Positions 4,011-62,465 of a stretch of 64,000 nt of DNA are shown piece by piece. Every line of letters begins with the position of its first letter. Position 1 is the stretch's first letter. Made by a program: the position numbers and the translations under genes. The stretch is from a virus. The stretch spans positions 120,640-184,639 of IMG/VR virus record IMGVR_UViG_3300045988_161114, one strand, 5' to 3'. The notes below the pieces were generated by a model, which saw nothing but the letters and a program-made list of their open reading frames with translations, searched no databases and had not been told where the DNA came from.

Positions 4011-4399
4011 TTTTTGTCATCCATAGTATCTTCGATCTTTTCTACGGACTTCTTCATAGATTCAAGCCTTTTATCAAACTTGTCAAGATTTTTCATCTCT
4101 CTTAATTGTAATTTGATAGAATCTAAATCACTACGAATGGCACTAAATTTACTCTTTATATCTCTTTCGCTATACCTTCTTATAGTTTCTATATCCATCC
4201 TATTGCTAGATGACATAGATATCATATCTTTAATCATGTCTTCTGTTTCTACAATTCTTAACTCCAATTTAGAAATGTTTTCGTTAAGAGCGTTATACTT
4301 TGTATCAACATAATAATTAGCGGATATGTTTGCAATTAAAATTACAAGAGAAGATAGCGTCAAAAATATGTGGTTACACCATATTTTTCTGCAATCCAT
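4007..4399 (-). CDS. Membrane-anchored coiled-coil protein
   Basis: 130 aa. N-terminal hydrophobic helix followed by heptad-like, charged sequence. Confidence 0.7.
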   Translation of the reverse strand: MDCRKIWCNHIFLTLSSLVILIANISANYYVDTKYNALNENISKLELRIVETEDMIKDMISMSSSNRMDIETIRRYSERDIKSKFSAIRSDLDSIKLQLREMKNLDKFDKRLESMKKSVEKIEDTMDDKK

Positions 4400-4427
4400 T
4401 TAAACTCCCTAAGTTCTGAGTTATGAA

Positions 4428-4727
4428 TTAACTCTTATGTGGAAAATATATTGGTTCGTCTTGTGAAGTTTCCCTTTCAATAACAGGAGCATCTTCCTCA
4501 GCTGTTTCTTGTGATGTCTCATCGACAGCAGCTTTATACTTTTCATTCACAAATCTAGTTGCAACATTAGAGCCCAGATATGCCATAGAAATTGTGATAA
4601 CAATATCTTTGTAGACAGTGCTATCAATTCTATTAATCAATAGGATGCTACTGACTAGTGCTATGACACTCAACGAAAAGACGAACTTTCTTGATAGAAA
4701 GTTTAGAGCATATTCTTTGATCGACAT
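4428..4727 (-). CDS. Small membrane protein
   Basis: 99 aa with one clear TM segment and an acidic C-terminus. Confidence 0.65.
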   Translation of the reverse strand: MSIKEYALNFLSRKFVFSLSVIALVSSILLINRIDSTVYKDIVITISMAYLGSNVATRFVNEKYKAAVDETSQETAEEDAPVIERETSQDEPIYFPHKS

Positions 4728-8480: not shown

Positions 8481-8506
8481 AACTTGTCTATAGAAAGGAC
8501 ATTATT

Positions 8507-11500
8507 ATGGCTAACACTATCAACACAATCAACTTCTTTGCTTCTCTTCCTGAAGATCGTCAAACTGCTATCAAAGAGGTGGCGAATCAACTGGTATCGG
8601 CAATTGGAACGGTTGCTACAAATGAACATAGAGATGTTAAAATCTCTGTACACGGCGTAGAGATTGCGATGCGCATTAAATCTGTATCGCGTAAAGGCAA
8701 AGCGTTTGTGACCTTTGTTAAGGGTCGCAATAACGGAGCAGCTCTTCAATTAATGGGCGCCCTTAAACTTGTAGAGGGTCGCAACTATGCAGTCAATAGG
8801 GTTCTTTGCAGTGGTTACGAGTCTTTCGTTAACAAATTCTTTATGTTAAATAAAGAAACCACAATTGTTGAGAAGAAAAAAGAAGTTACTTTCCGTAAGG
8901 AAATCATCACTTCTGCGGAGGCATTCTTCGGTTTTGTTGTAAAATTGTCTTCCGATTCTAAAAACAAGATCGAAGATATTCTGGATGCTATGCGTCAACG
9001 TCCAGGTCTCAGATATGCGCCCGTATCACATATCATGCCGCGTGCTCAACTTGCCCAATACCGCATTCCTGGTTGGGAGATTGAAACTGGTGAACTGGAT
9101 AGCATGAATTTATCTCCAGACATCAATAGCAAGTTGGCGTCTATTGGTGCATTTAGCCAAGGCGCAGTTGATTCTATGGCTGCAGTGTTCGACAATGATA
9201 TGACATACAGCATCAATGATAGCACTAAGTCAATCGCCCGTTTTGGATTGAATCCATCTGAACATAAATCAGTATCTATAGGCGTTAAAAAAGTTGCAGT
9301 CATTGTAGGTGTCGATATGCCAGAAGGTTACAATCGTCTCAACGATAGCATCTATACTTCTATTGTTGGCGGTGCTATACATGCCAACAAAAATGAGTAC
9401 CTGAAATATGGTGCTGTCCGCGTCATCTCTGAGAACCATGCAAAAGGCGTGGCTGCCTTTATTGGTGATGAGTTTGAGGCTGCTGCTAAAGAACTTGGCG
9501 TTCAATACATCACAGGCAAATTAAAATCCAAGTCTGTAGGCTTAGGATATAATCTTGTTAGCAATGGTAAAAGCCTGAAGGAGTTTATCATTGACCTGTA
9601 CAACGATGCTGAATTCCGGGCTGAGGTAAACAACACTCTGGCTTCTTTTGTTAAAGAGGTTAAGATTGGCGGGCTTGTTTATAAAGTTATCATTATCAAC
9701 GAAGAGCTGCATGTAACTTCTTTCTATTCCCTGGAGGGATGGGAATATACTGAGAAGTTCCTGAACAAGCAAGAGGATATCAAATCTCATGCCTCTATTG
9801 ATGAGGCTGAGTTTGAATTATTGGGTGTTGAACAAATCGACGAGGATTCTTTATCCGAAGAGGAAATCGAGACTCTGAATGCTAGCAGCGTTATGAAATT
9901 GTTTATTGAAAGCATCAAAACCAACCCTGATTTCAAAGTAGGGGAAGAATTGCTTAATATGAAACGCGAAGGCCTGATCACTAAGAGCAAGAAAGTGGGC
10001 CGTATCTCTCTGTTGACCCTTGATTCTATTAAAGATCAATTTGGCGAAGAAGCCCTGAAGTCCTTCTTGGAGGCAAACATTGATAACTCATACCTGGTTG
10101 AGTCATCTATTATGACCAAAGACCTCTCTCCTCGTATTTATGAAGAGGGTGAAATCAAGTTCATCTTGAAAGAACTGTTTGATGATAGCATTGCTTATGC
10201 GGGTAACGGAACTCTGAAGGCAGGGAACTTTAAGTCTTATGGCAAGGACAAACAAATGATCTCCAACACGATCGATCGTTTGCTTAATGGTGATTCTTCA
10301 ATTGGTTGGGTTGGTCTGACCAATACGGGGTTTACTATTGAGTTTGCTGGATACGATTTTGTGTTCCCAGCATGGGGCAAACTTAAAGGCCAGATCATTC
10401 TTCCTAATGAGGATGATTTGAGTGAGGGCCTTATTGGTGGCAAGCTGGTGGGCACTTTGATGTCTATCTACCAAATGATCAAGTTCCAAAACAATAAAGG
10501 TGCTGTATTGACCTATGCCAAACATATGTTGACCTTAGAGCAACTGTTCTTGGGTAGCCGCATTACCAAGATGCGTATGTCTAATAATGCGAACATGATA
10601 CTGGTTCCACAAACAAAAGATCTGGTAAATGTATACACTACAAACAAGACTGTCCGCAAAGGTATCCAAGAAGATGGTCAGCTTGGCTATATCAAATACC
10701 CAGAATTGATGCTGCAATCATTCAAGTTGGTTAGCGCCAAGTCTGATACACCGTTCTGGACATCTTCTGAAGAATATTCTATTTTTGATATCCTGGAGGA
10801 GTCTGTTCTTCGCATTCCTCCAATGCTTGCTTTGTCCAACCAAGACGATTTCGACGGTGATAGAGCCACCGTTTTCTTTGCTAAAGGTCTTGATGGTTAC
10901 GATACCTGGACAACTGAACATACTCTTGGGAAAGATAATCTGATTGGTGCGTATCAGGCTGCATATGTTGCAGATGAAGAAGAGTCTTTGTTAAAAGGTT
11001 TGGATGTTATCAATGATAGCACTATTAAGTGCTATCCTGTTGAGGAGTTCCAAAGTGGTGTAGAAAAACTGGTTAAAGCTAAGCAGGATACCGGGAAATA
11101 TACCAATGCCTTGGTTCAATCAATTCCACTGTTCGAAGCCATGACTGCTTTGAAAGACGGTTTATCTAAAGAAGAGGCACGTATTGCTATTGCCTCTATG
11201 GGTGTTGCCGTACAGAACGGTGCAATTTCACAAATGAAGCATGAGAATAGGGGTTATTCACTTATCGATATGATGTACCTGTTCTCAGCTTCTGAGCGTA
11301 ATGCACACGACGACTCTATCTCTTTGGCTGATGCTTGGGAAGAGGCAATTGAGTCTACAGTCGGCAACAAGGAAATGGCACGTCGCATCTCCACAATTAT
11401 TGCTGAGAAGGCTCCACGTATCATCGAGCACAGCAACATGGTCAAACTTGGCAAAGTATACAGTGAGGGTGAGTACGATTACTACAACCACTTCGGTACA

Positions 11501-11857
11501 AGAGCTACAGGTCTGGCTTTGTCTCGTATGGGGTTTGGCTCATACATGCAAAACCTTAATGGTGTGATCTATTCCTCTATTGATGGAACCGAAGAGGAAA
11601 TCAAAGATTATGTAGATGCTACAATGTCTATTGGTCGTACATTTGATGACTTCTTCAAAGTGGTTGAGTCTCGTGGTACTAAGCACTCTACTGCTCCCAA
11701 AGCCAGCATCTACGGAGCAATAGGTATGTTCTTTGAAGCTGCCGAGAAAGCTGCCAAATCATTGAAAGCTATCCAAGCAATCAATGTGTTTGCTGAGCGT
11801 GAGGCCTCTTCAACTGTTGAGGAACAAGCTTCAGCCTTGAATGACATGGGCTTCTAA
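8507..11857 (+). CDS. Single-chain two-barrel RNA polymerase-like protein (YonO / RdRP-like class), paralogue 1
   Basis: 1116 aa. VLRIPPMLALSNQDDFDGDRATVFF (DFDGD at nt 10847-10861) matches the beta-prime NADFDGD metal loop and the strand before it. The upstream ENHAKGVAAFIG resembles the beta RHGNKGV motif. Confidence 0.75.
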   Translation: MANTINTINFFASLPEDRQTAIKEVANQLVSAIGTVATNEHRDVKISVHGVEIAMRIKSVSRKGKAFVTFVKGRNNGAALQLMGALKLVEGRNYAVNRVLCSGYESFVNKFFMLNKETTIVEKKKEVTFRKEIITSAEAFFGFVVKLSSDSKNKIEDILDAMRQRPGLRYAPVSHIMPRAQLAQYRIPGWEIETGELDSMNLSPDINSKLASIGAFSQGAVDSMAAVFDNDMTYSINDSTKSIARFGLNPSEHKSVSIGVKKVAVIVGVDMPEGYNRLNDSIYTSIVGGAIHANKNEYLKYGAVRVISENHAKGVAAFIGDEFEAAAKELGVQYITGKLKSKSVGLGYNLVSNGKSLKEFIIDLYNDAEFRAEVNNTLASFVKEVKIGGLVYKVIIINEELHVTSFYSLEGWEYTEKFLNKQEDIKSHASIDEAEFELLGVEQIDEDSLSEEEIETLNASSVMKLFIESIKTNPDFKVGEELLNMKREGLITKSKKVGRISLLTLDSIKDQFGEEALKSFLEANIDNSYLVESSIMTKDLSPRIYEEGEIKFILKELFDDSIAYAGNGTLKAGNFKSYGKDKQMISNTIDRLLNGDSSIGWVGLTNTGFTIEFAGYDFVFPAWGKLKGQIILPNEDDLSEGLIGGKLVGTLMSIYQMIKFQNNKGAVLTYAKHMLTLEQLFLGSRITKMRMSNNANMILVPQTKDLVNVYTTNKTVRKGIQEDGQLGYIKYPELMLQSFKLVSAKSDTPFWTSSEEYSIFDILEESVLRIPPMLALSNQDDFDGDRATVFFAKGLDGYDTWTTEHTLGKDNLIGAYQAAYVADEEESLLKGLDVINDSTIKCYPVEEFQSGVEKLVKAKQDTGKYTNALVQSIPLFEAMTALKDGLSKEEARIAIASMGVAVQNGAISQMKHENRGYSLIDMMYLFSASERNAHDDSISLADAWEEAIESTVGNKEMARRISTIIAEKAPRIIEHSNMVKLGKVYSEGEYDYYNHFGTRATGLALSRMGFGSYMQNLNGVIYSSIDGTEEEIKDYVDATMSIGRTFDDFFKVVESRGTKHSTAPKASIYGAIGMFFEAAEKAAKSLKAIQAINVFAEREASSTVEEQASALNDMGF

Positions 11858-11998: not shown

Positions 11999-12030
11999 CC
12001 GGCACTCTTAAGGGTGAGTGTCGACACTTT
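11999..12030 (+). repeat. Conserved stem-loop element, copy 2 (degenerate, no T-tract)
   Basis: cgggcactc / gagtgtcg arms with one bulged G. Confidence 0.35.
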
Positions 12031-12062
12031 AATGATTATTTTGTTAACCCTTGGAGAGTATT

Positions 12063-13608: not shown

Positions 13609-13647
13609 AGTCGCCACACCTCCCTAGGGCAGTGTCGACTTCTTTTT
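13609..13647 (+). terminator. Conserved stem-loop element, copy 8
   Basis: agtcgccac / gtgtcgact arms (one C.T mismatch), tail TCTTTTTGATTA. An orphan GTGTCGAC half-site lies at 13566-13573. Confidence 0.5.
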
Positions 13648-13680
13648 GATTATTAACCATGTCTTAGAAAGGACAGCACC

Positions 13681-14066: not shown

Positions 14067-14108
14067 ATCGGCACTAGACAAATTAACGTTTAGTGTCGAT
14101 TTTTTATT
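14067..14108 (+). terminator. Conserved stem-loop element, copy 9
   Basis: atcggcacta / tagtgtcgat arms, 14-nt loop, tail TTTTTATTGAAAG. Confidence 0.6.
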
Positions 14109-14136
14109 GAAAGCCATCTAATAGAAAGGAAATGAT

Positions 14137-20690: not shown

Positions 20691-21162
20691 CTATGGTTGC
20701 ACGTCCCAATTTAAAAATTCCACTACTGACAGTGCTCTCATTGATTCTGAAAAAGTATCTGATGCTGGCGTTAAATCTGATCCTCGTGATGAATCAAATT
20801 TTGATAAACCTAAGGACGGTACATTTATTAAGCCTGAAATGATTGTTGATTTTCATGGCAAATATTTTGTTACAGATCGTGGAATACAGGTTTATGTAGA
20901 TGCCAGATATTGTCATCATAAATGGCGGTATGAAGGCAGCTCTATACAGAAAGGTAAAGAAAAATTTGACATTTGGGATGTTAATGGATATTCTCCTGAT
21001 TCTGGTACTATTGTTGGTTTTAGTGATAGCAGCAAATACAATGCAGCGCATTGGGATGTTCCTAAGCATTGGAAAGAATATACCGATTACCATAAAACTG
21101 ATTGGGAAGAAATTGGGTTTCTTGAACACAAGAAACGCCAAGAGCGTTACTCCATGAATTGA
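20566..21162 (+). CDS. Hypothetical protein, start codon unresolved
   Basis: The frame is open from 20566, but the plausible protein (..DSEKVSDAGVKSDPRDE...HKWRYEGSS...) has no ATG before 20839. A good RBS+ATG at 20694 is in another frame. Confidence 0.5.
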   Translation: MISLLLLKKCILVEILSCLLVNGYIIPTEANFRIFVLFIRSNYGCTSQFKNSTTDSALIDSEKVSDAGVKSDPRDESNFDKPKDGTFIKPEMIVDFHGKYFVTDRGIQVYVDARYCHHKWRYEGSSIQKGKEKFDIWDVNGYSPDSGTIVGFSDSSKYNAAHWDVPKHWKEYTDYHKTDWEEIGFLEHKKRQERYSMN

Positions 21163-21170
21163 TTATAAAA

Positions 21171-21199
21171 GTTGACACAATAGTGTCAACTTTTTTTTT
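21171..21199 (+). terminator. Conserved stem-loop element, copy 14
   Basis: gttgacac / gtgtcaac arms. A compensatory C>T / G>A change keeps the family stem paired. Loop aata, then T9. Confidence 0.65.
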
Positions 21200-21223
21200 G
21201 GTTAAAATATTTTGGAGTCTATC

Positions 21224-21728: not shown

Positions 21729-22154
21729 ATGTCACCAGAAAAGTTTAATTTCTTTTATCGGACTAATATCAAGTCCTATGAAAGATTTCTATCGACTATC
21801 AAGTTGAGCAATAAAATATTTGCTCAGCAAGAAAAAGCTTTGAATAAAGTATACTTTAGTCCTGCAAACTTTTTATACCCTAAATTATGGTTTAATTATT
21901 CTTTAAGTAATGATCTTTACTTTTTGAATAATGGTTTGTATTTTGAATCTCTGAAAATGATCGAATATTTTGGAATTAGTGATGATAATCCTATTCCAAA
22001 ATGTGACTTGAAAGCATTTATGCTTAGTGAGAACATTTCAAAGAATGCTAAAGGACGTATGCGTCACTTTTATGATATTCTTTGCCGCATTCATAATGAA
22101 ATTCAAAGATTTAAATCTTTTAAATTTGATTGCTATCCAGAATCCTGGTTCTGA
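21729..22154 (+). CDS. Hypothetical protein
   Basis: 141 aa. Starts 1 nt after the upstream stop. Confidence 0.7.
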   Translation: MSPEKFNFFYRTNIKSYERFLSTIKLSNKIFAQQEKALNKVYFSPANFLYPKLWFNYSLSNDLYFLNNGLYFESLKMIEYFGISDDNPIPKCDLKAFMLSENISKNAKGRMRHFYDILCRIHNEIQRFKSFKFDCYPESWF

Positions 22155-22164
22155 TTTAAAAATG

Positions 22165-22192
22165 TTCGGCACATTAGTGTCGAATATTTTTT
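22165..22192 (+). terminator. Conserved stem-loop element, copy 15
   Basis: ttcggcac / gtgtcgaa arms, loop atta, tail TATTTTTTGATTA. Confidence 0.6.
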
Positions 22193-22221
22193 GATTAAAA
22201 TCATTTTATTTGGAGTATGGT

Positions 22222-22545: not shown

Positions 22546-22881
22546 ATGAAAAAATTGGCTATCGTAATTGCCGCATCTTTCGTATTAACTGCCTGTAACC
22601 CTTTTAAAGGCGAAACAAATAATCGTATGTATATCAATTCAAATTATTGGATTGAATCATATGTTGATCATGATAAAACTGTCTATCAAGAATGTGTAAA
22701 TGATATGGTTCCCGGCAAAGAGGCAAAAGCTTTGTGCCGCCCAATTGACAAATCTCATTTTGAAGATATGCAATATCAGCATATTAATCACTCTATTGAG
22801 ATGTCTAAAGCTGTAGATCGCAAAAATGATCGTGCAATTACAGCATTGGAACAATTGCCTGATAAAAAGGCTTCTGAATAA
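22546..22881 (+). CDS. Lipoprotein
   Basis: Signal peptide MKKLAIVIAASFVLTAC with an L-T-A-C lipobox. Confidence 0.7.
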   Translation: MKKLAIVIAASFVLTACNPFKGETNNRMYINSNYWIESYVDHDKTVYQECVNDMVPGKEAKALCRPIDKSHFEDMQYQHINHSIEMSKAVDRKNDRAITALEQLPDKKASE

Positions 22882-22892
22882 AAGTTAAAAAT

Positions 22893-22924
22893 AATCGGCG
22901 CGATATTAGTGTCGATTATTTTTT
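22893..22924 (+). terminator. Conserved stem-loop element, copy 16
   Basis: aatcggcgc / agtgtcgatt arms (G.T pairs), tail ATTTTTTGATTA. Confidence 0.55.
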
Positions 22925-24579: not shown

Positions 24580-24836
24580 TGCATTAAATTGCATAAATTG
24601 ACGTAAAAAGCAATCAAAATTTGTATGCATCTATTTATATCGGGTTTACATTCGGTATAAGTGGTGCATACAAAAACAAAACTTTGTAGAATATTGAAAT
24701 ATAAAGAAATATTCTTATGTAAAAGTTTATTAAGAAGTGTATGCAATTTAAATAGCTCAATAAGCATGTAGTCATGCATCGGGTATATCAAACGACTTTT
24801 TTAACTGGGCCAAAGCATATTTTGTGTACATTTCTT

Positions 24837-25340
24837 AATGAGCTTTTGCTCATTTATTGCCGTAAAGGTGATATTTATTAAGATCGTTTGGACGCGGGTT
24901 CGACTCCCGCCAACTCCACCAAAAGACATTTCAAAGATGTTGATACTCTGAAAAGAGTTAGCGATTCCATATAGCCTATTTTTAACCCTATTACATTATT
25001 GCGATTGAGTTAAAATGTCTTATGAGATGTCTTCTGATGGGGTTGTAATGGAATTCGACAGGCGGTGAATAGGGATATTGCTCGGCACGAGTTGCTTCGT
25101 AAAAGCAAAATTAAAATAAATGCAAACGATGATGTTTACATGGTACGCGCCGCTGCCTAATTTAGGTAGTTGAGCATAAATGTACAGGGTTTGGACAGTA
25201 CCTGGTAACAGAAACTGTCCGAGAATTCTAACACTGCGGCTAGTGCACAGTGAGTTTCGTAATCGTCTACGATTGGGTAGAGCTGGAATCGTAACCAGCA
25301 ATTATAAAAGAGTAAATATGTTTGGGCATACCTAGTAACC
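24837..25340 (+). ncRNA. ssrA: Circularly permuted (two-piece) tmRNA gene: acceptor piece, spacer, coding piece
   Basis: 24890-24921 is GGACGCGGGTTCGACTCCCGCCAACTCCACCA (T arm + 3' acceptor strand + CCA). 25039 onward is GGGGTTGTAATGGAATTCGACAGG (tmRNA 5' end). GGGGTTG/CAACTCC pair with a G3.U70 wobble. Tag ORF: GCA at 25122, ANDDVYMVRAAA, TAA at 25158-25160. The outer ends are approximate. Confidence 0.7.
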
Positions 25341-25439
25341 AACTAGTGAAATTTAAACAAGCATATATTTTGTGGAAATAACTTAACCATATATCGGTAT
25401 ATACCGACTTTTTGCATGAGTTTTAAATACCTTAAGAAT

Positions 25440-26195
25440 CGAATTTTGTGGTGACTACTTACAGAATTTAAGGTTTCAGGACATGTTTACTCCTTTATGA
25501 TTCAACCCCCCGCAGCTCTAAGGTGTTTCAACCTTAAATTGATGGTGCATACCATTGTCCTTTCTTGACAGCATAGCAATTTATATTAGTTGCTATTTGG
25601 CTCATCAGCAACGGAAAGACGGCCTGATGAAAACAAATTTATGTAGTACGTCTTACCTGTAGTATACCCTAAGACGTGCTATTAAATCAACTGTACTAGG
25701 CAAGCTAGGATGAGCTGAATGCAGTTGTAAAACCTTGGGTAGTCCTAGAAATCCAGCTATGGGTTGACCAAAAATAGCATTTATGGTAATAATGGGTCCG
25801 TCTCCTGCCCTGAGCCATACGACCAATGATATCATTAAGGCATTCGATATTATGTCGTTAAACTACTATACTTATTGCGTAGTAGAAAGAAATGCCTAGA
25901 TCGCTATAAAATGCGATCGAATCGTTAAACCTTGCCGAGGTACTATATCGGCCCTTCTAGGATGAAGAGCTACATCCTAGTATGTGTTCATTGATGTGAT
26001 AGGCCCTACCAACTTCGCCGACTCACTTATAGCTCAATCTCAGACTTGTCTGACTATTCCGTCTTTGGATTATGGACGGAAAGAGTGAGTTTACGACCGG
26101 CGATTCCGGAGTAATACCACTCTAATAATGATCCACTGAATAGCGTCGGCGCACTTTATGTGACGCCGGCGCATTCTTTATTTAATTAATTTATA
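25440..26195 (+). ncRNA. Candidate large ornate non-coding RNA #2 (family unknown)
   Basis: No credible ORF. At least 12 local helices, e.g. ttaaggtt/aaccttaa, tcatcag/ctgatga, acgtctta/taagacgt (extended by a plus-strand-only G.U pair), ctaggatg/catcctag, gatcgc/gcgatc, ttccgtc/gacggaa, actcact/agtgagt. Ends in a GC-rich hairpin followed by ATTCTTTATTT. Confidence 0.45.
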
Positions 26196-26247
26196 CAAGA
26201 TGCTATTTTATTGGTATTTTATATAAATTCTTTATTGAGGAATAATA

Positions 26248-26439
26248 ATGGTTGTATGTGTTTGTAATAATGTTAGCACCAACACGATCAATAAAGATTA
26301 TATTGATTTAAATAAAAGTGTTGATGATCTTATTATTGACACAGGTGCAACTATGTGTTGTGGAAAATGTGCTGATTATATTAATTGTATGTTTTCTGAA
26401 AAAGTTTTGTTAGTGCCATCTCTCCAACTGGACTCCTAA
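26248..26439 (+). CDS. BFD-like [2Fe-2S]-binding domain protein
   Basis: VCVCNNVS...MCCGKCADYI follows the C-x-C...C-x-x-C pattern and spacing of bacterioferritin-associated ferredoxin. Confidence 0.55.
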   Translation: MVVCVCNNVSTNTINKDYIDLNKSVDDLIIDTGATMCCGKCADYINCMFSEKVLLVPSLQLDS

Positions 26440-26534
26440 GGGTATGATGTTCTGCCCTCATATGGTATTATCATATGTTGCCTATTTTTAATAGGAAGAA
26501 CAAATTCTTTTTTAATCATTATGGAGGATTAAAG

Positions 26535-26993: not shown

Positions 26994-27022
26994 ACAACAA
27001 TGTTCTCAGAAAGGACACAAAG

Positions 27023-30000
27023 ATGTACATTCGCTTAAAAGACATTCCAGTAATTGATGCTGATGCTACAGTTGCGGAGGTTTATGAAATTTATTCTAAA
27101 CAGTTGCCACAGGATCCAAGACTTAATTGGAAACTGTTGCAAGATCGTATTGCAATGGAAATTGTAAATGAGATTTCTGAACCGACTACAATTGAGATTC
27201 CTAAATCTTTTTATGATCTCAAATTGAATTGGCCTGAATTTTTGTTTGCAACCAAACATATTGACAGCAGTTCTGACATTGAATTGATGAGTCATCATGA
27301 ACTTATGTTTATGATGTTGTATGAACGCCTTGAATCTTTGTTCAAGTATGATCAACTCTTTACTGAATTGATTCGCAAAGACATCAATTATGTCAAGAAC
27401 CATGTATTGTATGTAACAAGTAATGCATACAATGCTGCTTTGAAAGAATCTTCTGAACTTGTTATTATTTCTCCTTATAATGAGTACAGTAAAGTTTTGA
27501 CATATTTGCATCAAGATAAAGTTATGGGCGACGCATTGCCCATGTTGTTTAATCCATCCGATCGTGCTATTAAGACTTCTGCATTATATTTTAATGTATT
27601 GCCCGGAAGTGAATCAATGCTTGCTGAATCTAATAAAATTATCATTTCTAAAAACGGTAAAGAGTTTCAGGCTCCTGGATTCCAAGTATTTAAAGATGAA
27701 AACGGTGGCTTTGTAGGTTATTCAAGTTTGTTCAAAGTTGGACAGTCTTTGCCTGCCCGTTTCAAGACTCATCTTAATGGTAATGCATTTGGTGTAAGCA
27801 ATCCTTCTAAGTTCATCTTTTTACAGGATGCAATTGAAAAGGATGGTGAATTAATCACTAAGGATAATACCTTAGTTGATGCAGTAATGGTTTATAACGA
27901 TATTGAATTGGAATCGTATCGTTTAGTAGGCGGCGAAATTGAAGTATCGCCTAAAGTAGGCAAAGAAATTGTGTTCACTCCTCGTCATATTGAAACTGAA
28001 TTTGATGAGATTGATGTAAAAGTTGGACAGACTATTTACAGCAAAGGTGGGTACATTAAAATTGGTTCACGTGGCGGTGAAGCAATTTATATCGAAATGG
28101 TAGACCATATTCAGGTTACTTCTATTGAAGAATCGGGATATAATGGGTCCGCCCGCATTGATTATATTGCCTACTATAAAGCTGGTAATGCCCGTATTAC
28201 AAGCCAAACTGGCTTGAAAGGTGTTACTAAAACTATGCGCAGTTGTGGCAAAATCAAGATTCATGAAGATGGCAAAGAAGATAAAATCATCGACGTGGAT
28301 ATTGTAGCTGGTATTAATAGCCTTAAAGGTAAAATGAATACTATTCGTCTTGCTCAAGCAGCTTTTGCATTTAAATATGGCTATTATACCAATGATAAAG
28401 ATTACCTCGACAGTCTTAATGAAGAGGAAATCAATGCCGCTGTTGCGTCATTGCCTACTGCAACTTATGAAAAACGTATTAAACGTGTTGATGGTTATGA
28501 TGATGAAATTATTGTAATTGAAAACGTTAAATACGGCCTGGTTCAGTATTCTTACACTGAATTGGGTAGCCATTTTGCTAAGATTAAGAATCAAGGCATG
28601 TCATTTAATTGTTTGAAATATATTTGTCAAACAACAGATTCATCTCTTGGACAATATATTTTAGATAATTGTATTGATAAATCTGATAAGCAAATTGTTG
28701 AAGAATTGGCAAAAATCTTGTCAGATGAAGGTCATGTATTTGAATACGCTGATAATTATCCGTCATATACATTGATTGAATTGAAGTCAATGTTTAATGA
28801 ACAGGACTTAATCTTGAGTCGTTCTGCTATTATTCCTACTAGCAGTAAATTGTTGGATCCTGAATTCAATAAAGGTTTCTATATCGACTTAAGTAAGGTT
28901 CGTTCTGGTACAAGTATTCGTGTACCATCTGCAGAGATTTTAAATAAATTCTGCGGTAAGCAAAATGATGGTCAATATGTATATCCAACTATGCTTATTG
29001 AATTGTCTAAAATCATTCGTGCAGCAATTGCTGGCCCTAGCCAGTATTTTACTATTGCGCCGCATCGTAATGAACGTAATCATAAGCGTCCTTCCGCATG
29101 GAATGGCTATTTGAATGCAATTAAATCAATGCTGTATCGTACTGAATTAGGTGGTCAAACTTATGTTAAATCACTTATTCAGCCAAGTCTCAAAGGTGTC
29201 AACCTTAAACAGGTTCATGATAAATATGTTCCTGAAGGCAAAGTCGTAATTCTTGATCGTAATATTCTTGAGAGTATTCGTGAGTATATTTATGGCAAGC
29301 CTAATAATAAGACAACTGAAGAGGCAATGCTTGACCAGTTCCGTCCATTAAATGCATTTACTTTGCGTAATCCGTTTTTATGGCGTTCACAGATGATTAT
29401 TTCCCAACTTTGGGGAATTGATGAATTCAATGATTATCTTCAGGAGAATTATGGAATGACTGTCAATGATTATCTGGATGTACAGGGAAATCTGCATTGC
29501 GCTTTGATTTCTACTGAAATTGTAAGACGTAGCCATAGCGACAATGATGGCGACTTATTGCAAATTAGTTCAATACCAGGAATTGAGCAACAAGAAATGA
29601 TGGCTCAATTCAAATTGGAATACTTTACTGAAGATCAAAAACAGTGGGATGAAGACTTCTTGTTGTCTGAGTATTCATCTATTGAAGATGTTGATTGGAG
29701 TAAAAAGTACGAATTGTATTATGTTCCAATTTATCCTAAGCATCCTGGTGATAATGCTTATATGGAATTTCTATGTTCATCAGCTATGGCTAAGAATGCA
29801 GTTGGTCCTGGTACAAATGATGCATGGGTATTTTACATGTTAGTTCAGCTGTATTATGGACTGGCGCGTGATAATGATCCTAAATCGTATGTACCTTGGG
29901 AACGTAAACGTAAAGTACAACTTCGTATTAAAGAAGAAGACTTGTTTACTTATGACCATATTTATACAATGGTTCTTGAAAATCGTGTAATTAATGCGAT

Positions 30001-30409
30001 TAAACATGTGTCAGGTGGAGCTAGCTCTCATGCTGTCTTCTACCTCAAAAACATGACAAAAGACGACAAGAGTGTTAAAAAGGTAATTAAAAGTATCGAG
30101 AATGACTTAGGTTATTCAAGAGAAGTTGCCGTTTCTATTTGTCGTATTGTAAATTGGGCAGTTAATACCAATGCACTTGAAATGTGTAATAAGTTTTTAC
30201 GCATGCACAATAAAGGTGCCCTAGTTGATCTAGGTGATGCGGATATTCAGATGTGGTTTAAACACATTGTTGATTATACGTTCTTTGGCAGTATGCTTGC
30301 ACCGATTTTTACCATTTATGGTCAAAGTCAAGGATTAATTCCTTTAGGCGAAAATGCAGAAAATAATGTGGCCGAAGTTATGGACACTTTTGACGCAATT
30401 GGTTTTTAA
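27023..30409 (+). CDS. Single-chain two-barrel RNA polymerase-like protein, paralogue 2
   Basis: 1128 aa. TSQTGLKGVTK...VDIVAGINSLKGKMNTIRLAQ resembles beta GRHGNKGVISK...VDIVLNPLGVPSRMNIGQ. About 440 aa later, LHCALISTEIVRRSHSDNDGDLLQI (DNDGD at nt 29540-29554) resembles the beta-prime NADFDGD loop. Confidence 0.75.
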   Translation: MYIRLKDIPVIDADATVAEVYEIYSKQLPQDPRLNWKLLQDRIAMEIVNEISEPTTIEIPKSFYDLKLNWPEFLFATKHIDSSSDIELMSHHELMFMMLYERLESLFKYDQLFTELIRKDINYVKNHVLYVTSNAYNAALKESSELVIISPYNEYSKVLTYLHQDKVMGDALPMLFNPSDRAIKTSALYFNVLPGSESMLAESNKIIISKNGKEFQAPGFQVFKDENGGFVGYSSLFKVGQSLPARFKTHLNGNAFGVSNPSKFIFLQDAIEKDGELITKDNTLVDAVMVYNDIELESYRLVGGEIEVSPKVGKEIVFTPRHIETEFDEIDVKVGQTIYSKGGYIKIGSRGGEAIYIEMVDHIQVTSIEESGYNGSARIDYIAYYKAGNARITSQTGLKGVTKTMRSCGKIKIHEDGKEDKIIDVDIVAGINSLKGKMNTIRLAQAAFAFKYGYYTNDKDYLDSLNEEEINAAVASLPTATYEKRIKRVDGYDDEIIVIENVKYGLVQYSYTELGSHFAKIKNQGMSFNCLKYICQTTDSSLGQYILDNCIDKSDKQIVEELAKILSDEGHVFEYADNYPSYTLIELKSMFNEQDLILSRSAIIPTSSKLLDPEFNKGFYIDLSKVRSGTSIRVPSAEILNKFCGKQNDGQYVYPTMLIELSKIIRAAIAGPSQYFTIAPHRNERNHKRPSAWNGYLNAIKSMLYRTELGGQTYVKSLIQPSLKGVNLKQVHDKYVPEGKVVILDRNILESIREYIYGKPNNKTTEEAMLDQFRPLNAFTLRNPFLWRSQMIISQLWGIDEFNDYLQENYGMTVNDYLDVQGNLHCALISTEIVRRSHSDNDGDLLQISSIPGIEQQEMMAQFKLEYFTEDQKQWDEDFLLSEYSSIEDVDWSKKYELYYVPIYPKHPGDNAYMEFLCSSAMAKNAVGPGTNDAWVFYMLVQLYYGLARDNDPKSYVPWERKRKVQLRIKEEDLFTYDHIYTMVLENRVINAIKHVSGGASSHAVFYLKNMTKDDKSVKKVIKSIENDLGYSREVAVSICRIVNWAVNTNALEMCNKFLRMHNKGALVDLGDADIQMWFKHIVDYTFFGSMLAPIFTIYGQSQGLIPLGENAENNVAEVMDTFDAIGF

Positions 30410-58121: not shown

Positions 58122-58763
58122 ATGGAAATTCTTAGTTCTATTTTTTATAAAATTATCAATTATATAAATTTATATTTATTTAGTGGGAGTTCTTTTAAGA
58201 TCAGAAAGCTTGCTAAAAAGAATAATGGAGACTCAATTTATTCTTCTGCCAGTTTAATGAGTCCATCTTATGTAAAAGTTATATTCCATGATATAGTTGA
58301 TTATAAGAATTTTATAAGAGATGTTATTTTAAATTCTAGTGATATAAAAAATTGGGATTTTTATTTTGCTACTGTTTTAGAAAACAATAATATTATAGCA
58401 ACCTTCCATTATTCTAATGATGAAAATCTTCCTGATATTTTAAGTAAAAAATATATTGATATTGCTTTGCATTCATTGGATATATTTTCTAATATTATTG
58501 AAAGTAATAGTATTTTAGAAATGAAAGTTGAAAGCAATACGGTAATTATTCCGGATGGTTATAATTATTATATTAGTGGTCCTAATAAGTCTACAACCAT
58601 TACTAAAGATGATAAGAAATTGGTTATAAAAAATGAAAGTTATTGCTTGTTAAGCAATTCTTGCTTTGAAGTTTTAAAAAATATGATTGAAAAAATTTCT
58701 TATCAAAACAAAATTTTGTACAATATTGATTTGGATTTAGATAATTTAAAGTTATTCAAATAA
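58122..58763 (+). CDS. Hypothetical protein
   Basis: 213 aa. Confidence 0.65.
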   Translation: MEILSSIFYKIINYINLYLFSGSSFKIRKLAKKNNGDSIYSSASLMSPSYVKVIFHDIVDYKNFIRDVILNSSDIKNWDFYFATVLENNNIIATFHYSNDENLPDILSKKYIDIALHSLDIFSNIIESNSILEMKVESNTVIIPDGYNYYISGPNKSTTITKDDKKLVIKNESYCLLSNSCFEVLKNMIEKISYQNKILYNIDLDLDNLKLFK

Positions 58764-58786: not shown

Positions 58787-59099
58787 CCTTGGGAAGCTTA
58801 AACCCGGTATAAGCAATCGACTCATGAATAATCGTGCGTTTGGAAACGAAAGTTCCAAAATGAATTGGATGAATTCAGGGAAACCTAAGTCTTTTAGATA
58901 TGGCAATCCTGAGCCAAGCTAAGAGCCAACTCTTAGAAGGTGCAACGACTACTGGAGAGGTAAAGGTCCTCTTAATGACCAGATTAGCGTCCAACGCCTA
59001 AGTGATTTATCATATGGCGGTGATATAGTCTAGGGAGTATAGAAATATACACAAACCTGAATCGATAGACAGTGGGTTCGAATCCCACCCCAAGGACCA
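58787..59099 (+). tRNA. tRNA(CAU) (Ile2 or Met) interrupted by a group I intron
   Basis: Acceptor ccttggg/cccaagg. D arm gctt..aagc. Anticodon stem atcga/tcgat. Loop ctCAT|intron|aa. T arm gtggg-ttcgaat-cccac. Encoded CCA. Not initiator-like, because the anticodon stem has no GGG/CCC. Confidence 0.8.
58826..59059 (+). ncRNA. Group I intron, IC3-like (Azoarcus tRNA-Ile intron type), 234 nt, no ORF
   Basis: Inserted after U36 of the anticodon and ends in G. GTG at 58835-58837 can pair with the exon CAU (G.U). The core GGGAAACCTAAG...TATGGCAATCCTGAGCCAAGC matches the remembered Azoarcus core GAAACCUAAG...UAUGGCAA..GAGCCAAGC. Confidence 0.75.
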
Positions 59100-59178: not shown

Positions 59179-60756
59179 ATGACATCTCCACTTTTTAAAA
59201 CTCAACGTCCTAAATTGGCAGTTGGTAAAACTACAAGTATTCCTGCCACTCGTGTTAACACTATAAACGAAGCTGGTGGCGCTGCTTATTCAATGAGTCA
59301 TGAACATGCATTAGCTCAATATGTAGTTACAGGTATGTTTGATAACACTTGTTATCTTGATGGACATACTCAACTTAAGCATATTAAAGAGCTTGCTAAT
59401 AAATGTAGTAATAATTTTGTTATGCGTTTGGCTGTTTATGCTCATGAATATGGTTATATGAAAGATACTTCTGCATATCTGCTTGGTTATTTAATGAAAC
59501 AGAATGACAAGAGTTATTTTAAACGTGCATTTCCGCTCGTTATTACAAATGGCCGTATGCTTCGTACATTTGTTCAAATTATTCGTTCTGGTGCATTTGG
59601 TTCTCGTAGTTTTGGTACAGTGGCCAAAAAAGCTATTCAAGACTATTTGAATAACTGTACTGATAAACAAATTATTAATGCTTCTATTGGTAATAATCCA
59701 TCTCTTAAAGATGTGATCATGATGGTTCATCCTAAAGCAAACAATAGTTCACGTAATCAACTTTATCGTTGGGTATGTGGCTTTGATTTTGATGAAAAAC
59801 AGTTACCGGTAGAATTGCAAAAATATTTAAAATTGCAAAAAGATCCATCTGGATTTGAAGAGCTTCCAAAAGTTCCATTCCAAATGTGTACAAGTATGCC
59901 ATTGACTGATGCTGGATGGAAAGCAATTTTTGATATTTCAACTTGGCAACAAATTCGTATGAATTTGGCTACTTTTGATCGACATAATGTCTTCAATGAT
60001 TTTTCTTATGTAAATAAAGCATATGAACGTTTAGTTTCTCGTGACGATATTCTTCGTTCTAAAGTTATGCCTTATTCTGTATTTAGTGCATATCTAAATG
60101 CAGGTTCTATTCCTGCTCGTATTAAAGATGCATTGAATACTGCTTTACAAATTAGTCTTGAGAATATCCCAAAGACTGATGGCAAAACAGTTCTTGCAAT
60201 TGATTATTCTGGTTCTATGACCTGGAAAATTAATTTGAAAAGTTCTGTTCGTCATATTGATATTGCTGCAGTATTTGCTGCTGCATTGAAATTCCGTAAT
60301 CCGGAAGCAGAGATTGTTTTATTTAACAGTCGCGCAAGAGACTATATTGTCAATCCGGAAACCACTGTGTTACAATTAGCTAATAATATTTCTCGTTTAG
60401 CCAATGGTGGCACTGATTGTGGTGCAGCCCTTCAGCATATTTATGATAAAGGTCGTTATAGTGGAATGCCTGACAATATCATTATGATTAGTGATAATCA
60501 ATCATGGCTTGGATTCAATAGAGGCCATAAAACCACTGCGCAAAGAATTTTCGATGATATTCGAAAAATTAATCCTCGCGCCAAAATGGTTAATATTGAT
60601 ATTGCACCAATGTCAAGTTCTCAGACTTCACCTAGTGAACATGTACTTAATATCGGCGGATTTAATGATACAGTATTTAAAATTGTATCAGATTTCTTTG
60701 AGTCTAAAGGCGATAAGTCATTCTGGGTAAACAAAATTAAGGCTATTGAAATTTAA
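59179..60756 (+). CDS. Ro60-like TROVE-domain + vWA protein (Rsr orthologue)
   Basis: 525 aa. N-terminal ..NEAGGAAY...ALAQYVVTGMFDNTCY.. is TROVE-like. The C-terminal vWA domain has the MIDAS motif LAIDYSGSM. Confidence 0.8.
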   Translation: MTSPLFKTQRPKLAVGKTTSIPATRVNTINEAGGAAYSMSHEHALAQYVVTGMFDNTCYLDGHTQLKHIKELANKCSNNFVMRLAVYAHEYGYMKDTSAYLLGYLMKQNDKSYFKRAFPLVITNGRMLRTFVQIIRSGAFGSRSFGTVAKKAIQDYLNNCTDKQIINASIGNNPSLKDVIMMVHPKANNSSRNQLYRWVCGFDFDEKQLPVELQKYLKLQKDPSGFEELPKVPFQMCTSMPLTDAGWKAIFDISTWQQIRMNLATFDRHNVFNDFSYVNKAYERLVSRDDILRSKVMPYSVFSAYLNAGSIPARIKDALNTALQISLENIPKTDGKTVLAIDYSGSMTWKINLKSSVRHIDIAAVFAAALKFRNPEAEIVLFNSRARDYIVNPETTVLQLANNISRLANGGTDCGAALQHIYDKGRYSGMPDNIIMISDNQSWLGFNRGHKTTAQRIFDDIRKINPRAKMVNIDIAPMSSSQTSPSEHVLNIGGFNDTVFKIVSDFFESKGDKSFWVNKIKAIEI

Positions 60757-61226: not shown

Positions 61227-61351
61227 GCGGAGATAGTTCAAGGGTAGAATGCTTAAAAATTACTTTATAACTTTGTCTGTAAAGAATGCTGTAAAGTTTA
61301 CAATTCCATTCCAAGGAAGTGATGCAGGTTCGAGTCCTGTTCTCCGCTCCA
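61227..61351 (+). tRNA. tRNA-Gly(UCC) carrying the conserved inserted module
   Basis: gcggaga ta gttc-aagggta-gaat g c[tt.. module 61262-61302 ..]ttcc-atTCCaa-ggaag tgat gcagg-ttcgagt-cctgt tctccgc t cca. Without the ~51-nt insert it is collinear with E. coli tRNA-Gly(UCC). Confidence 0.65.
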
Positions 61352-62338: not shown

Positions 62339-62465
62339 GAGGGGTTAGTTTAATCGGGAAAACATTATTGGGAATTTTACAATTTTGTCCCTTATTGGAA
62401 TGCAGTAAGATTTACATTTCACGGCTAATGAAAAGATGTAGGTTCGAGTCCTACACCCCTTACCA
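62339..62465 (+). tRNA. tRNA-shaped gene C carrying the conserved inserted module (anticodon loop atypical)
   Basis: gaggggt ta gttt-aatcggga-aaac a [module 62373-62416] tttca-cgGCTaa-tgaaa agat gtagg-ttcgagt-cctac acccctt a cca. Position 33 is G rather than U. The nominal anticodon is GCU but there is no long variable arm. Confidence 0.5.

Follow-up and report, generated by a model that had tools for sequence, protein, structure and literature searches.

A putative family of large structured RNAs in uncultured jumbo phages, with a core complementary to the ribosome-binding site of an RNA polymerase beta-like gene

What is encoded in the gene-free DNA that directly follows, on the same strand, the permuted two-piece transfer-messenger RNA (tmRNA; 24796-25251) of an uncultured jumbo phage? 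The stretch analyzed here, 64,000 nucleotides (nt) long and referred to as the window, spans positions 120,640 to 184,639 of IMG/VR record IMGVR_UViG_3300045988_161114. Its source is an uncultured jumbo phage whose nearest cultured relative, as judged by the 1128-amino-acid (aa) protein encoded at 27023-30409, is Acinetobacter phage vB_AbaM_ME3 (28.5% identity). An earlier note, made from the letters alone, had proposed a large, densely paired RNA at 25440-26195, either of a class such as GOLLD or ROOL or new. Comparison with related loci gives good support to a real, conserved structured RNA and to a family of such RNAs in three sizes, whose invariant core complements the ribosome-binding site (RBS) of a downstream RNA polymerase (RNAP) beta-like gene and may act on it.

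A conserved structured RNA in three sizes

Within 25157-26245 neither strand carries an open reading frame (ORF) of more than 61 aa, as the earlier note had reported for the region; the short ORFs that do occur lie on both strands and not only, as it had stated, on the antisense one. A gene concealed by an alternative genetic code or by frameshifting has these short ORFs in its favor and nothing else. Relatives of the locus differ from one another by indels of 1, 2, 16, or 26 nt. TAA, TAG, and TGA each interrupt all six frames, so that a single recoded stop cannot conceal a gene, and the flanking genes are tightly packed and use the standard code. As far as the DNA itself can tell, then, no gene is hidden here; the idea was already refuted at the level of the tools, and its probability is negligible.

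The region is less AT-rich than its flanks, as had been noted (GC content, 0.40 at 25501-26000 versus 0.33-0.38). The dense pairing that had also been claimed stood with respect to conserved helices but not with respect to fold energy. Fold z-scores of 25440-26195 are -6.98 (+ strand) and -3.81 (- strand), but 300-nt windows in the coding flanks of the same genome score alike (about -3, range 0 to -7, versus -2.5 to -4.8 for RNA windows). We rejected the thermodynamic z-score as evidence, and the case must therefore rest on comparison.

Long-form relatives with the same locus were found in three IMG/VR contigs and five further metagenome contigs, 88-93% identical in nucleotide sequence at the RNA locus. 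More than 50 other genomes of the long-form clade are available (clusters P0020-P0068). Invariant columns account for 65-87% of the noncoding stretch, versus about 80-85% in the flanking genes, and the indels fall at hairpin tips or add whole hairpins. The many helices that had been claimed are there: about 27 local helices are kept in eight of eight long forms, with 95.7% of the cells paired versus about 36% when the 3' partners are slid. Covariation, which had been named as a check, was found as well, eight pairs having changed on both sides. In these helices, the structures of which were predicted on the + strand, G.U cells outnumber A.C cells 93 to 8. The part of the proposal that spoke of a new large structured RNA is thus backed by conservation, covariation, indels at hairpin tips, and a terminator.

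The other part, membership in the GOLLD or ROOL class, found no support in a scan of all of Rfam 15 (4227 families), run at the gathering threshold over the window and at E<=10 over 24700-26500. The former returned only the tmRNA, a group I intron, and tRNAs; the latter gave nothing credible in 25250-26250, and the short and mini forms described below matched no Rfam family, the short ones not even at E<=10. An identity as GOLLD, ROOL, HEARO, OLE, raiA, RNase P, an intron, or a riboswitch was rejected, there being no Rfam match at any threshold. No homologue of the RNA was found in cultured phages, where the tmRNA T-arm alone has matches. Judged by these searches, the RNA family is previously undescribed and is not a member of any described family.

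The family comprises 9 long (~830 nt), 16 short (~440 nt), and 7 mini (~270 nt) loci, all in uncultured jumbo phages of ~170-187 kb. The entry point to the short forms was a group of phages with a large protein 45-47% identical to that of the window and a gene-free gap of ~450 nt just before a BFD-like ferredoxin gene; this gap and the window have CCUUUCUUGACAGC and ACGGAAAGACGG in common. Pattern scans yielded 16 such loci with 58-99% mutual identity. In a plain MAFFT alignment of the short forms the helices are 88% paired, versus 31-42% with slid partners, and both partners have changed in 21 pairs (none of 500 shuffles comes up to these values); 3 of the 15 helices are mis-nested in the structure string, and the pairing result holds regardless. 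The hairpin equivalent to the terminator covaries. Helix UCGU/ACGA, compensated in four sequences, crosses an invariant AGUC/GACU pairing and therefore suggests a pseudoknot in the short form. A covariance model built from the short-form core alone detects 25504-25634 of the window (28.8 bits; E, 1e-4 to 7e-7), and in a joint alignment of long and short forms pairing of the core amounts to 97%, both partners having changed in 13 pairs.

The mini form was found in seven contigs of ~170 kb, between BFD and a homologue of a 113-aa gene of the window; its core consists of GUCCUUUCUGACAG, a hairpin, and the stem AUGGCG/CGCCGU around a loop containing GUGGAAAGACAG. Common to all three classes are GUCCUUUCU(U)GACAG, a covarying hairpin, and a covarying stem that closes a loop with the invariant GGAAAGAC. 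The conserved neighbors are the BFD-like [2Fe-2S] ferredoxin gene (26248..26439, + strand; Pfam Fer2_BFD, E=4.6e-7), which follows the RNA directly in nearly all loci and is absent in L007-L009, and, farther downstream, the RNAP beta-like gene.

The tmRNA, in contrast, adjoins the RNA in the long-form clade only, and the 23 short and mini loci have no tRNA or tmRNA within 7-10 kb. Its adjacency is incidental, because it is confined to that clade, and the argument that the earlier note had drawn from a neighboring tmRNA or tRNA does not carry over to the family. The same loci bear on the idea that the stretch is a 3' trailer or precursor part of the permuted tmRNA. The two adjoin each other on one strand, no clear promoter separating them, and about 25100-25400, with 95% invariant columns, is the most conserved part of the locus. 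The tmRNA models, however, end at 25222-25251 (ARAGORN, 24829-25251; Rfam, 24796-25222, with 115.8 bits for tmRNA_permuted and 104.8 bits for alpha_tmRNA), and the same core recurs in the 23 loci just mentioned. The short and mini forms largely refute a trailer, which we consider very improbable.

Complementarity to a polymerase-like gene

Neither the 1128-aa protein (27023-30409) nor a 1116-aa protein encoded at 8507-11857 has a sequence match in Pfam, PHROG, or PDB. An AlphaFold model of the 1128-aa protein made with 16 homologues (predicted local distance difference test score, 84.6; predicted template-modeling score, 0.81) matches second-largest RNAP subunits (bacterial beta, Rpb2-type) with a Foldseek probability of 1.00 and E down to 6e-7, a match that is local, as the TM-scores are low. 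This protein carries SDNDGD; the 1116-aa protein carries NQDDFDGD, which we take to be typical of RNAP beta' subunits, and is probably beta'-like. The two together probably form a highly divergent phage multisubunit RNAP.

Motif 1 (GUCCUUUCU; UGUCCUUUCUUGACAGC at 25556..25572, + strand), the invariant family core and proposed extended anti-Shine-Dalgarno (anti-SD) seed, is the Watson-Crick complement, over 9-12 bp, of the SD region of the 1128-aa gene. The proposed target in the window is 27008..27025 on the + strand, with the RBS AGAAAGGACA at 27008-17 and the start codon at 27023. Downstream sequence was sufficient at 25 loci, and at every one of them the longest perfect complement of motif 1 within the 3 kb that follow is the RBS of the orthologous large gene. 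The long forms have the duplex UUGUCCUUUCU/AGAAAGGACA(A), of 10-11 bp, and the short forms AUACCUUUCU/AGAAAGGUAU, of 10 bp; short group 2 has AUAUACCUUUCU/AGAAAGGUAUAU (12 bp), and in the mini forms AGUCCUUUC/GAAAGGACU is joined by GACAG/CUGUC. At three positions flanking the SD, all 13 distinct rows keep Watson-Crick pairs, and both sides change between clades; the flank covariation score is 0.276 versus 0.096 after shuffling (0 of 500 as high), and slid controls are lower. The extended 9-10-mer is unique or nearly so in each 17-23 kb locus, the other RBSs having other flanks. A conserved seed facing an initiation region and compensatory change between them, as expected of a base-pairing RNA, were thus both found, with about three or four independent events underlying them. 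An intrinsic terminator, also looked for, is present and covaries in the long and short forms; the mini forms have none between the RNA and BFD.

In the 64-kb window AGAAAGGACA has three sites on the + strand, all of them RBSs (8492, 13666, and 27008), and its reverse complement has one, motif 1 at 25556. RNAduplex ranks the three sites 1st, 2nd, and 4th among 58 initiation regions, at -21.5, -20.3, and -17.2 kcal/mol versus a median of -9.0. The first (8492..8501, + strand) is the RBS of the 1116-aa gene, a candidate target in the long-form clade only, and the second (13666..13675, + strand) is that of a 125-aa gene.

Because the seed and the RBS, 0.2-1.4 kb apart, are formally an inverted repeat of 10-12 bp, they might instead belong to a DNA-level element, such as an invertible or recombining segment, an origin, a packaging signal, or a decaying spacer. 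One arm of the repeat, however, is exactly an SD at a fixed spacing from the ATG, U-tailed terminators occur on the + strand only, compensation at the level of hairpins runs throughout the region, and G.U far exceeds A.C in the long-form helices. A DNA element has only a slim chance of being right.

As the invariant core complements the RBS of the beta-like gene, the RNA may well be a translational regulator, and we give about an even chance to the reading that this large structured RNA is a riboregulator presenting an extended anti-SD seed. The folded body would present, and perhaps gate, the seed; pairing with the initiation region of the beta-like gene would block 30S binding and so tune synthesis of the phage polymerase, and in the long-form clade the seed would also fit the RBSs of the beta'-like and 125-aa genes. 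The invariant loop GGAAAGAC is RBS-like and could pair with the seed (CUUUCU/GGAAAG); since it resembles the target RBS and can pair in this way, it may keep the seed closed. Motif 1 is the only consistent partner of this loop inside the RNA. CAAG (25358-61) can also pair with CUUG (25564-67), a pairing predicted by RNAalifold in the short forms, with no covariation. A split helix is conceivable as well, CUUUCUUG being the exact complement of CAAG plus AAAG with all its bases invariant. A 1-nt codeletion from CAAG/CUUG to CAG/CUG in the mini forms was considered as support for this S1 helix and set aside as ambiguous, there being two candidate 5' partners. In every clade the RNA and the target have at least one intrinsic terminator between them, and action in trans by a terminated, stable transcript is therefore most likely; long-range action in cis on read-through transcripts is possible. 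More speculatively, and with clearly less than even odds, the fold could be a "trans-riboswitch" and found a new class: it would sense a signal (a metabolite, a protein, the ribosome, or the stage of infection) and expose or hide the seed, with the GGAAAGAC loop as an RBS decoy, and thereby set translation of the phage multisubunit RNAP.

Several points weigh against a regulator of this kind. The seed is anti-SD-like, and 7 of its 9-12 bp fit any SD of the AGAAAGG type; the specific evidence consists of three to five flanking positions and about three or four independent events at the level of clades. Duplex length by itself is not significant, since other 18-nt windows of the RNA also find complements of 9-10 nt in the downstream 3 kb, at about one or two sites per RNA. 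Motif 1 may be occupied inside the RNA, by the CAAG/CUUG pairing and the loop. The beta'-like gene has a complementary RBS in the long-form clade only, its homologues elsewhere being without a match, and in RNAduplex the short-form BFD RBS scores about the same as the beta-like RBS. The model leaves the need for a conserved structure of 270-830 nt unexplained, and the ends, abundance, and expression of the RNA are putative.

The BFD-like gene raises the alternative that the RNA is a cis-acting 5' leader (riboswitch or attenuator) of the ferredoxin operon, with the terminator as expression platform and motif 1 as the anti-SD of BFD. In each of the three classes the RNA immediately precedes this gene and is encoded on its strand, despite rearrangement of other neighbors; the short-form terminator is placed 25-35 nt before the RBS, the mini forms have a terminator after BFD and none between the RNA and BFD, and pairing of short-form motif 1 with the initiation region of BFD scores well, at -21 to -24 kcal/mol. 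Such SD/anti-SD pairing is possible in the short and mini forms only. The long-form BFD RBS (GAGGAA) is not complementary and ranks outside the top 10, the flank of the BFD RBS does not covary with the flank of the seed, and L007-L009 retain the RNA without BFD. No riboswitch family matches, and inspection revealed no antiterminator, as the terminator stems compensate and nothing upstream changes to match; an antiterminator formed by the GGGGCCCC segment with the terminator was rejected on the same ground. We consider a BFD leader distinctly unlikely.

More weight, though still on the unlikely side, falls to a stand-alone "ornate" RNA with another function (for example scaffold, ribozyme, or protein binding, roles that have been suggested for GOLLD and ROOL), in which complementarity to the RBS would be a by-product of an internal SD/anti-SD-like pseudoknot. 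The size of the RNA is far above that of ordinary antisense RNAs, the long and short forms have a strong terminator of their own, the peripheral hairpins are elaborated and swapped among close relatives, and junctions and loops are the sites of the invariant motifs, which are able to pair with one another. Rfam scans, on the other hand, gave no homology to any ornate RNA, and it would go unexplained why, in all clades, three positions beside the seed covary with the RBS of a single downstream gene while the loop does not covary with them.

Two observations touch on these sequences. RBSs in the window come in two dialects. At least 10 genes of the GC-richer module (6900-31000) have AGAAAGG at a constant distance, the A of the motif and the ATG being exactly 15 nt apart, and the AT-richer module (31000-64000) uses AAAGGA/TAAGGA; the two may mark expression classes. 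Further, GACGGAAAGAC (ACGGAAAGAC in the window, 25610-25620), the most conserved loop stretch of the RNA and one that occurs in all short forms too, is identical over 11 nt to positions 2053-2063 of Escherichia coli 23S rRNA (E ~0.3), which we take to be the A2058 macrolide/Erm site. Mimicry of 23S rRNA domain V and A2058 was rejected, as the identity is at chance level and an unrelated 11-mer scores equally.

Parts of the long form and its surroundings

The start at 25440 that had been proposed is probably too far downstream. The motif AAACAAG (25355..25361, + strand) is invariant in 8 long and 16 short forms, and because of this the RNA most likely starts ~85 nt farther upstream, probably near 25355. 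With these proposed ends the whole long form (25355..26190, + strand) would be an ORF-free RNA of ~830 nt with 27 conserved helices. On the 5' side, all on the + strand, helix ACCUUAA/UUAAGGU (25429..25474) surrounds a hairpin (25441-50/25460-69) with G-C/G.U exchanges, and it is followed by GGUUUCAGGA (25472-81) and ACUCC (25489-93), both common to the short forms. Motif 1 is followed by hairpin S9 (AUAGCAAUU/AGUUGCUAU, 25573..25596, + strand), in which seven of eight pairs have changed on both sides and which has the same place but a different sequence in each of the three size classes. Stem S10 (UCAUCAG/CUGAUGA, 25602..25630, + strand) closes the 15-nt loop CAACGGAAAGACGGC (25609-25623), which contains the invariant motif GGAAAGAC; the stem covaries, being AGGG/CCCU in the short forms and AUGGCG/CGCCGU in the mini forms. 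Two partners proposed for the S10 loop within the long form, a kissing loop with CCGUCU (25798-25803) and a complementarity to CCGUCUUU (26059-66), were dropped as invariant or clade specific; L030 and L034 do not have the second site.

The 3' extension (25637..26137, + strand) is found in the long-form clade only and has at least 15 hairpins. These include 25637-52/25673-87, 25688-95/25720-27, 25756-60/25774-78, 25782-87/25814-19 (with an inner pairing 25794-97/25807-10), 25863-71/25877-85, 25899-904/25913-18, 25934-38/25948-52, and 25957-64/25973-80, all on the + strand. Within the first of them, the helix gtacgtctta/taagacgtgc picked out by the earlier note (25643-25652 with 25673-25682) is real and includes G.U pairs; at the tip of this helix the window has a 16-nt insertion of its own. 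Compensatory changes were seen at 25794/25810 and 25964/25973 (both from G-C to A-U) and at 26085-87/26118-20. The nested 3' domain that had been proposed survives in its inner hairpins, tcaga/tctga (26040-44/26049-53, + strand) and ttccgtc/gacggaa (26057-63/26075-81, + strand). Its outer helix, actcact/agtgagt, does not, since AGAGUG (26082-87) pairs with CACUCU (26118-23, + strand) instead, in three fully compensated versions. In L030 and L034 unrelated hairpins replace the module 26040-26135, and L002 has a whole extra hairpin inserted. The GC-rich hairpin with a U-rich tail that had been seen at the end is an intrinsic terminator (26138..26190, + strand) with a 16-bp stem (26138-54/26160-76), invariant in eight long forms.

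A fourth form may exist in L164, a more distant relative with a beta-like protein 38% identical to that of the window. Its ORF-free stretch 4140-4510 has GGGUUUC..CAGGAU..AUCCUG, AUACUCC, a terminator, and UUGUCCUUU in a hairpin loop (UGUCCUUU), and the RBS of its beta-like gene is AGAAAGGACAA; covariance model R1 gave no significant score on this stretch. Long and short forms resemble each other by eye in UAGUC..UUGAC and GCCGAG..UCGGCCC. The idea that the long form is a circular permutation of the short form was dropped, as a sequence hidden Markov model detects the 65-nt core and nothing more, and the fold of the long-form element is different. Beyond the known members, the pattern CAGGATNATCCATRACTCC gave only chance matches in coding DNA, and matches in L023, L027, L038, and the Bacteroidales metagenome-assembled genome match L181 are likewise due to chance. 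The gap at 2202-3748 of L007 was rejected as a copy of the RNA, being an AT-rich repeat region. Gene-free, AT-rich stretches of 1.5-2.5 kb in relatives (this one, 851-2766 of L011, and 1-2522 of L010) are full of short degenerate repeats (aatagag, tataa) and may be a replication origin or a promoter cluster.

The tmRNA tag is ANDDVYMVRAAA in the window and ANDNVYMVRAAA in L001, and the tmRNA is followed by ~100 nt of hairpin-rich sequence (window 24796-25354). The tmRNA 3' element GGGUUUGGACAGUACCUGGUAACAGAAACUGUCC (25146-25229) resembles the short-form S8 element AUGGUUUCAGGAUNAUCCAUGACUCCGAAAAAUCCUG, with E=0.24 in model R1, which is not significant. A hairpin (C)CGGCAC...GUGUCG(A) followed by a U-run recurs between genes, upstream of many of them (~12000-12050, 13610-13660, 14070-14120, 21150-21200, 22150-22200, and 22870-22920), and the terminators of the RNA family (GCCCCGGCAC..GUCGGGGC; in L007, GACCGGCAC..GUGUCGGUC) look like variants of it. 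The group I intron at 58814-59052 (Rfam, 83.6 bits), located between ORFs 58122-58763 and 59179-60756, probably splits one gene. Two Rfam tRNA matches of ~122 nt (61227-61348 and 62339-62462), neither of which is called by ARAGORN, may be tRNA genes with long insertions or introns; an ordinary tRNA-Pro (60991) and tRNA-Arg (63037) adjoin them.

Comparison with known systems

Jumbo phages with their own RNA polymerases must time and balance polymerase synthesis, and to our knowledge almost nothing is known of posttranscriptional control of this step. If the proposed regulator is real, a large conserved RNA fold would be tied to a testable target, the RBS of the beta-like gene. Such a link is missing for GOLLD and ROOL, for which we know of no proposed mRNA target. 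Even without regulation, the family would be a new structured RNA of 270-830 nt in three natural sizes with a minimal core of ~75 nt, and the size variants and this core make it well suited to structure determination and to questions about accessory domains.

GOLLD and ROOL are found in phages or prophages, commonly beside tRNA genes. The RNA described here is like them in its several hundred nucleotides, many helices, phage origin, and variable peripheral hairpins, and that of the window also adjoins a tRNA-like gene. GOLLD and ROOL form RNA-only homo-oligomeric cage assemblies, as seen by cryo-electron microscopy (PMC12286853). The new RNA differs in that it matches neither of their Rfam models, that its adjacency to tmRNA is limited to one clade, and that it has a covarying seed complementary to an mRNA.

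Trans-acting small RNAs that occlude RBSs include the prophage-encoded DicF. The resemblance lies in a short, conserved, putatively single-stranded seed against the SD or start region and, in the long and short forms, in a Rho-independent terminator. In contrast to those small RNAs, the new RNA is 3 to 10 times larger, with a multidomain fold around the seed; the seed mimics the anti-SD of rRNA, and the RNA is encoded 0.2-1.4 kb upstream of its putative target on the same strand.

RNAs derived from riboswitches or leaders can also act in trans, SreA of Listeria among them. With these and with anti-SD/anti-anti-SD switches the new RNA has in common a target SD, an anti-SD (motif 1), and an SD-like loop (GGAAAGAC), as well as, in the long and short forms, a predicted terminated transcript upstream of genes. 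It differs in being without a known aptamer and in that no alternative terminator/antiterminator pairing was detected. In RNA phages, long-distance RNA-RNA pairing controls translation of the polymerase, as in the Min Jou interaction of MS2. Here too, an upstream sequence is predicted to pair with the RBS of a phage polymerase gene across hundreds of nucleotides, but the genome is DNA, the partner sits in a dedicated noncoding structured RNA, and terminators lie between the two.

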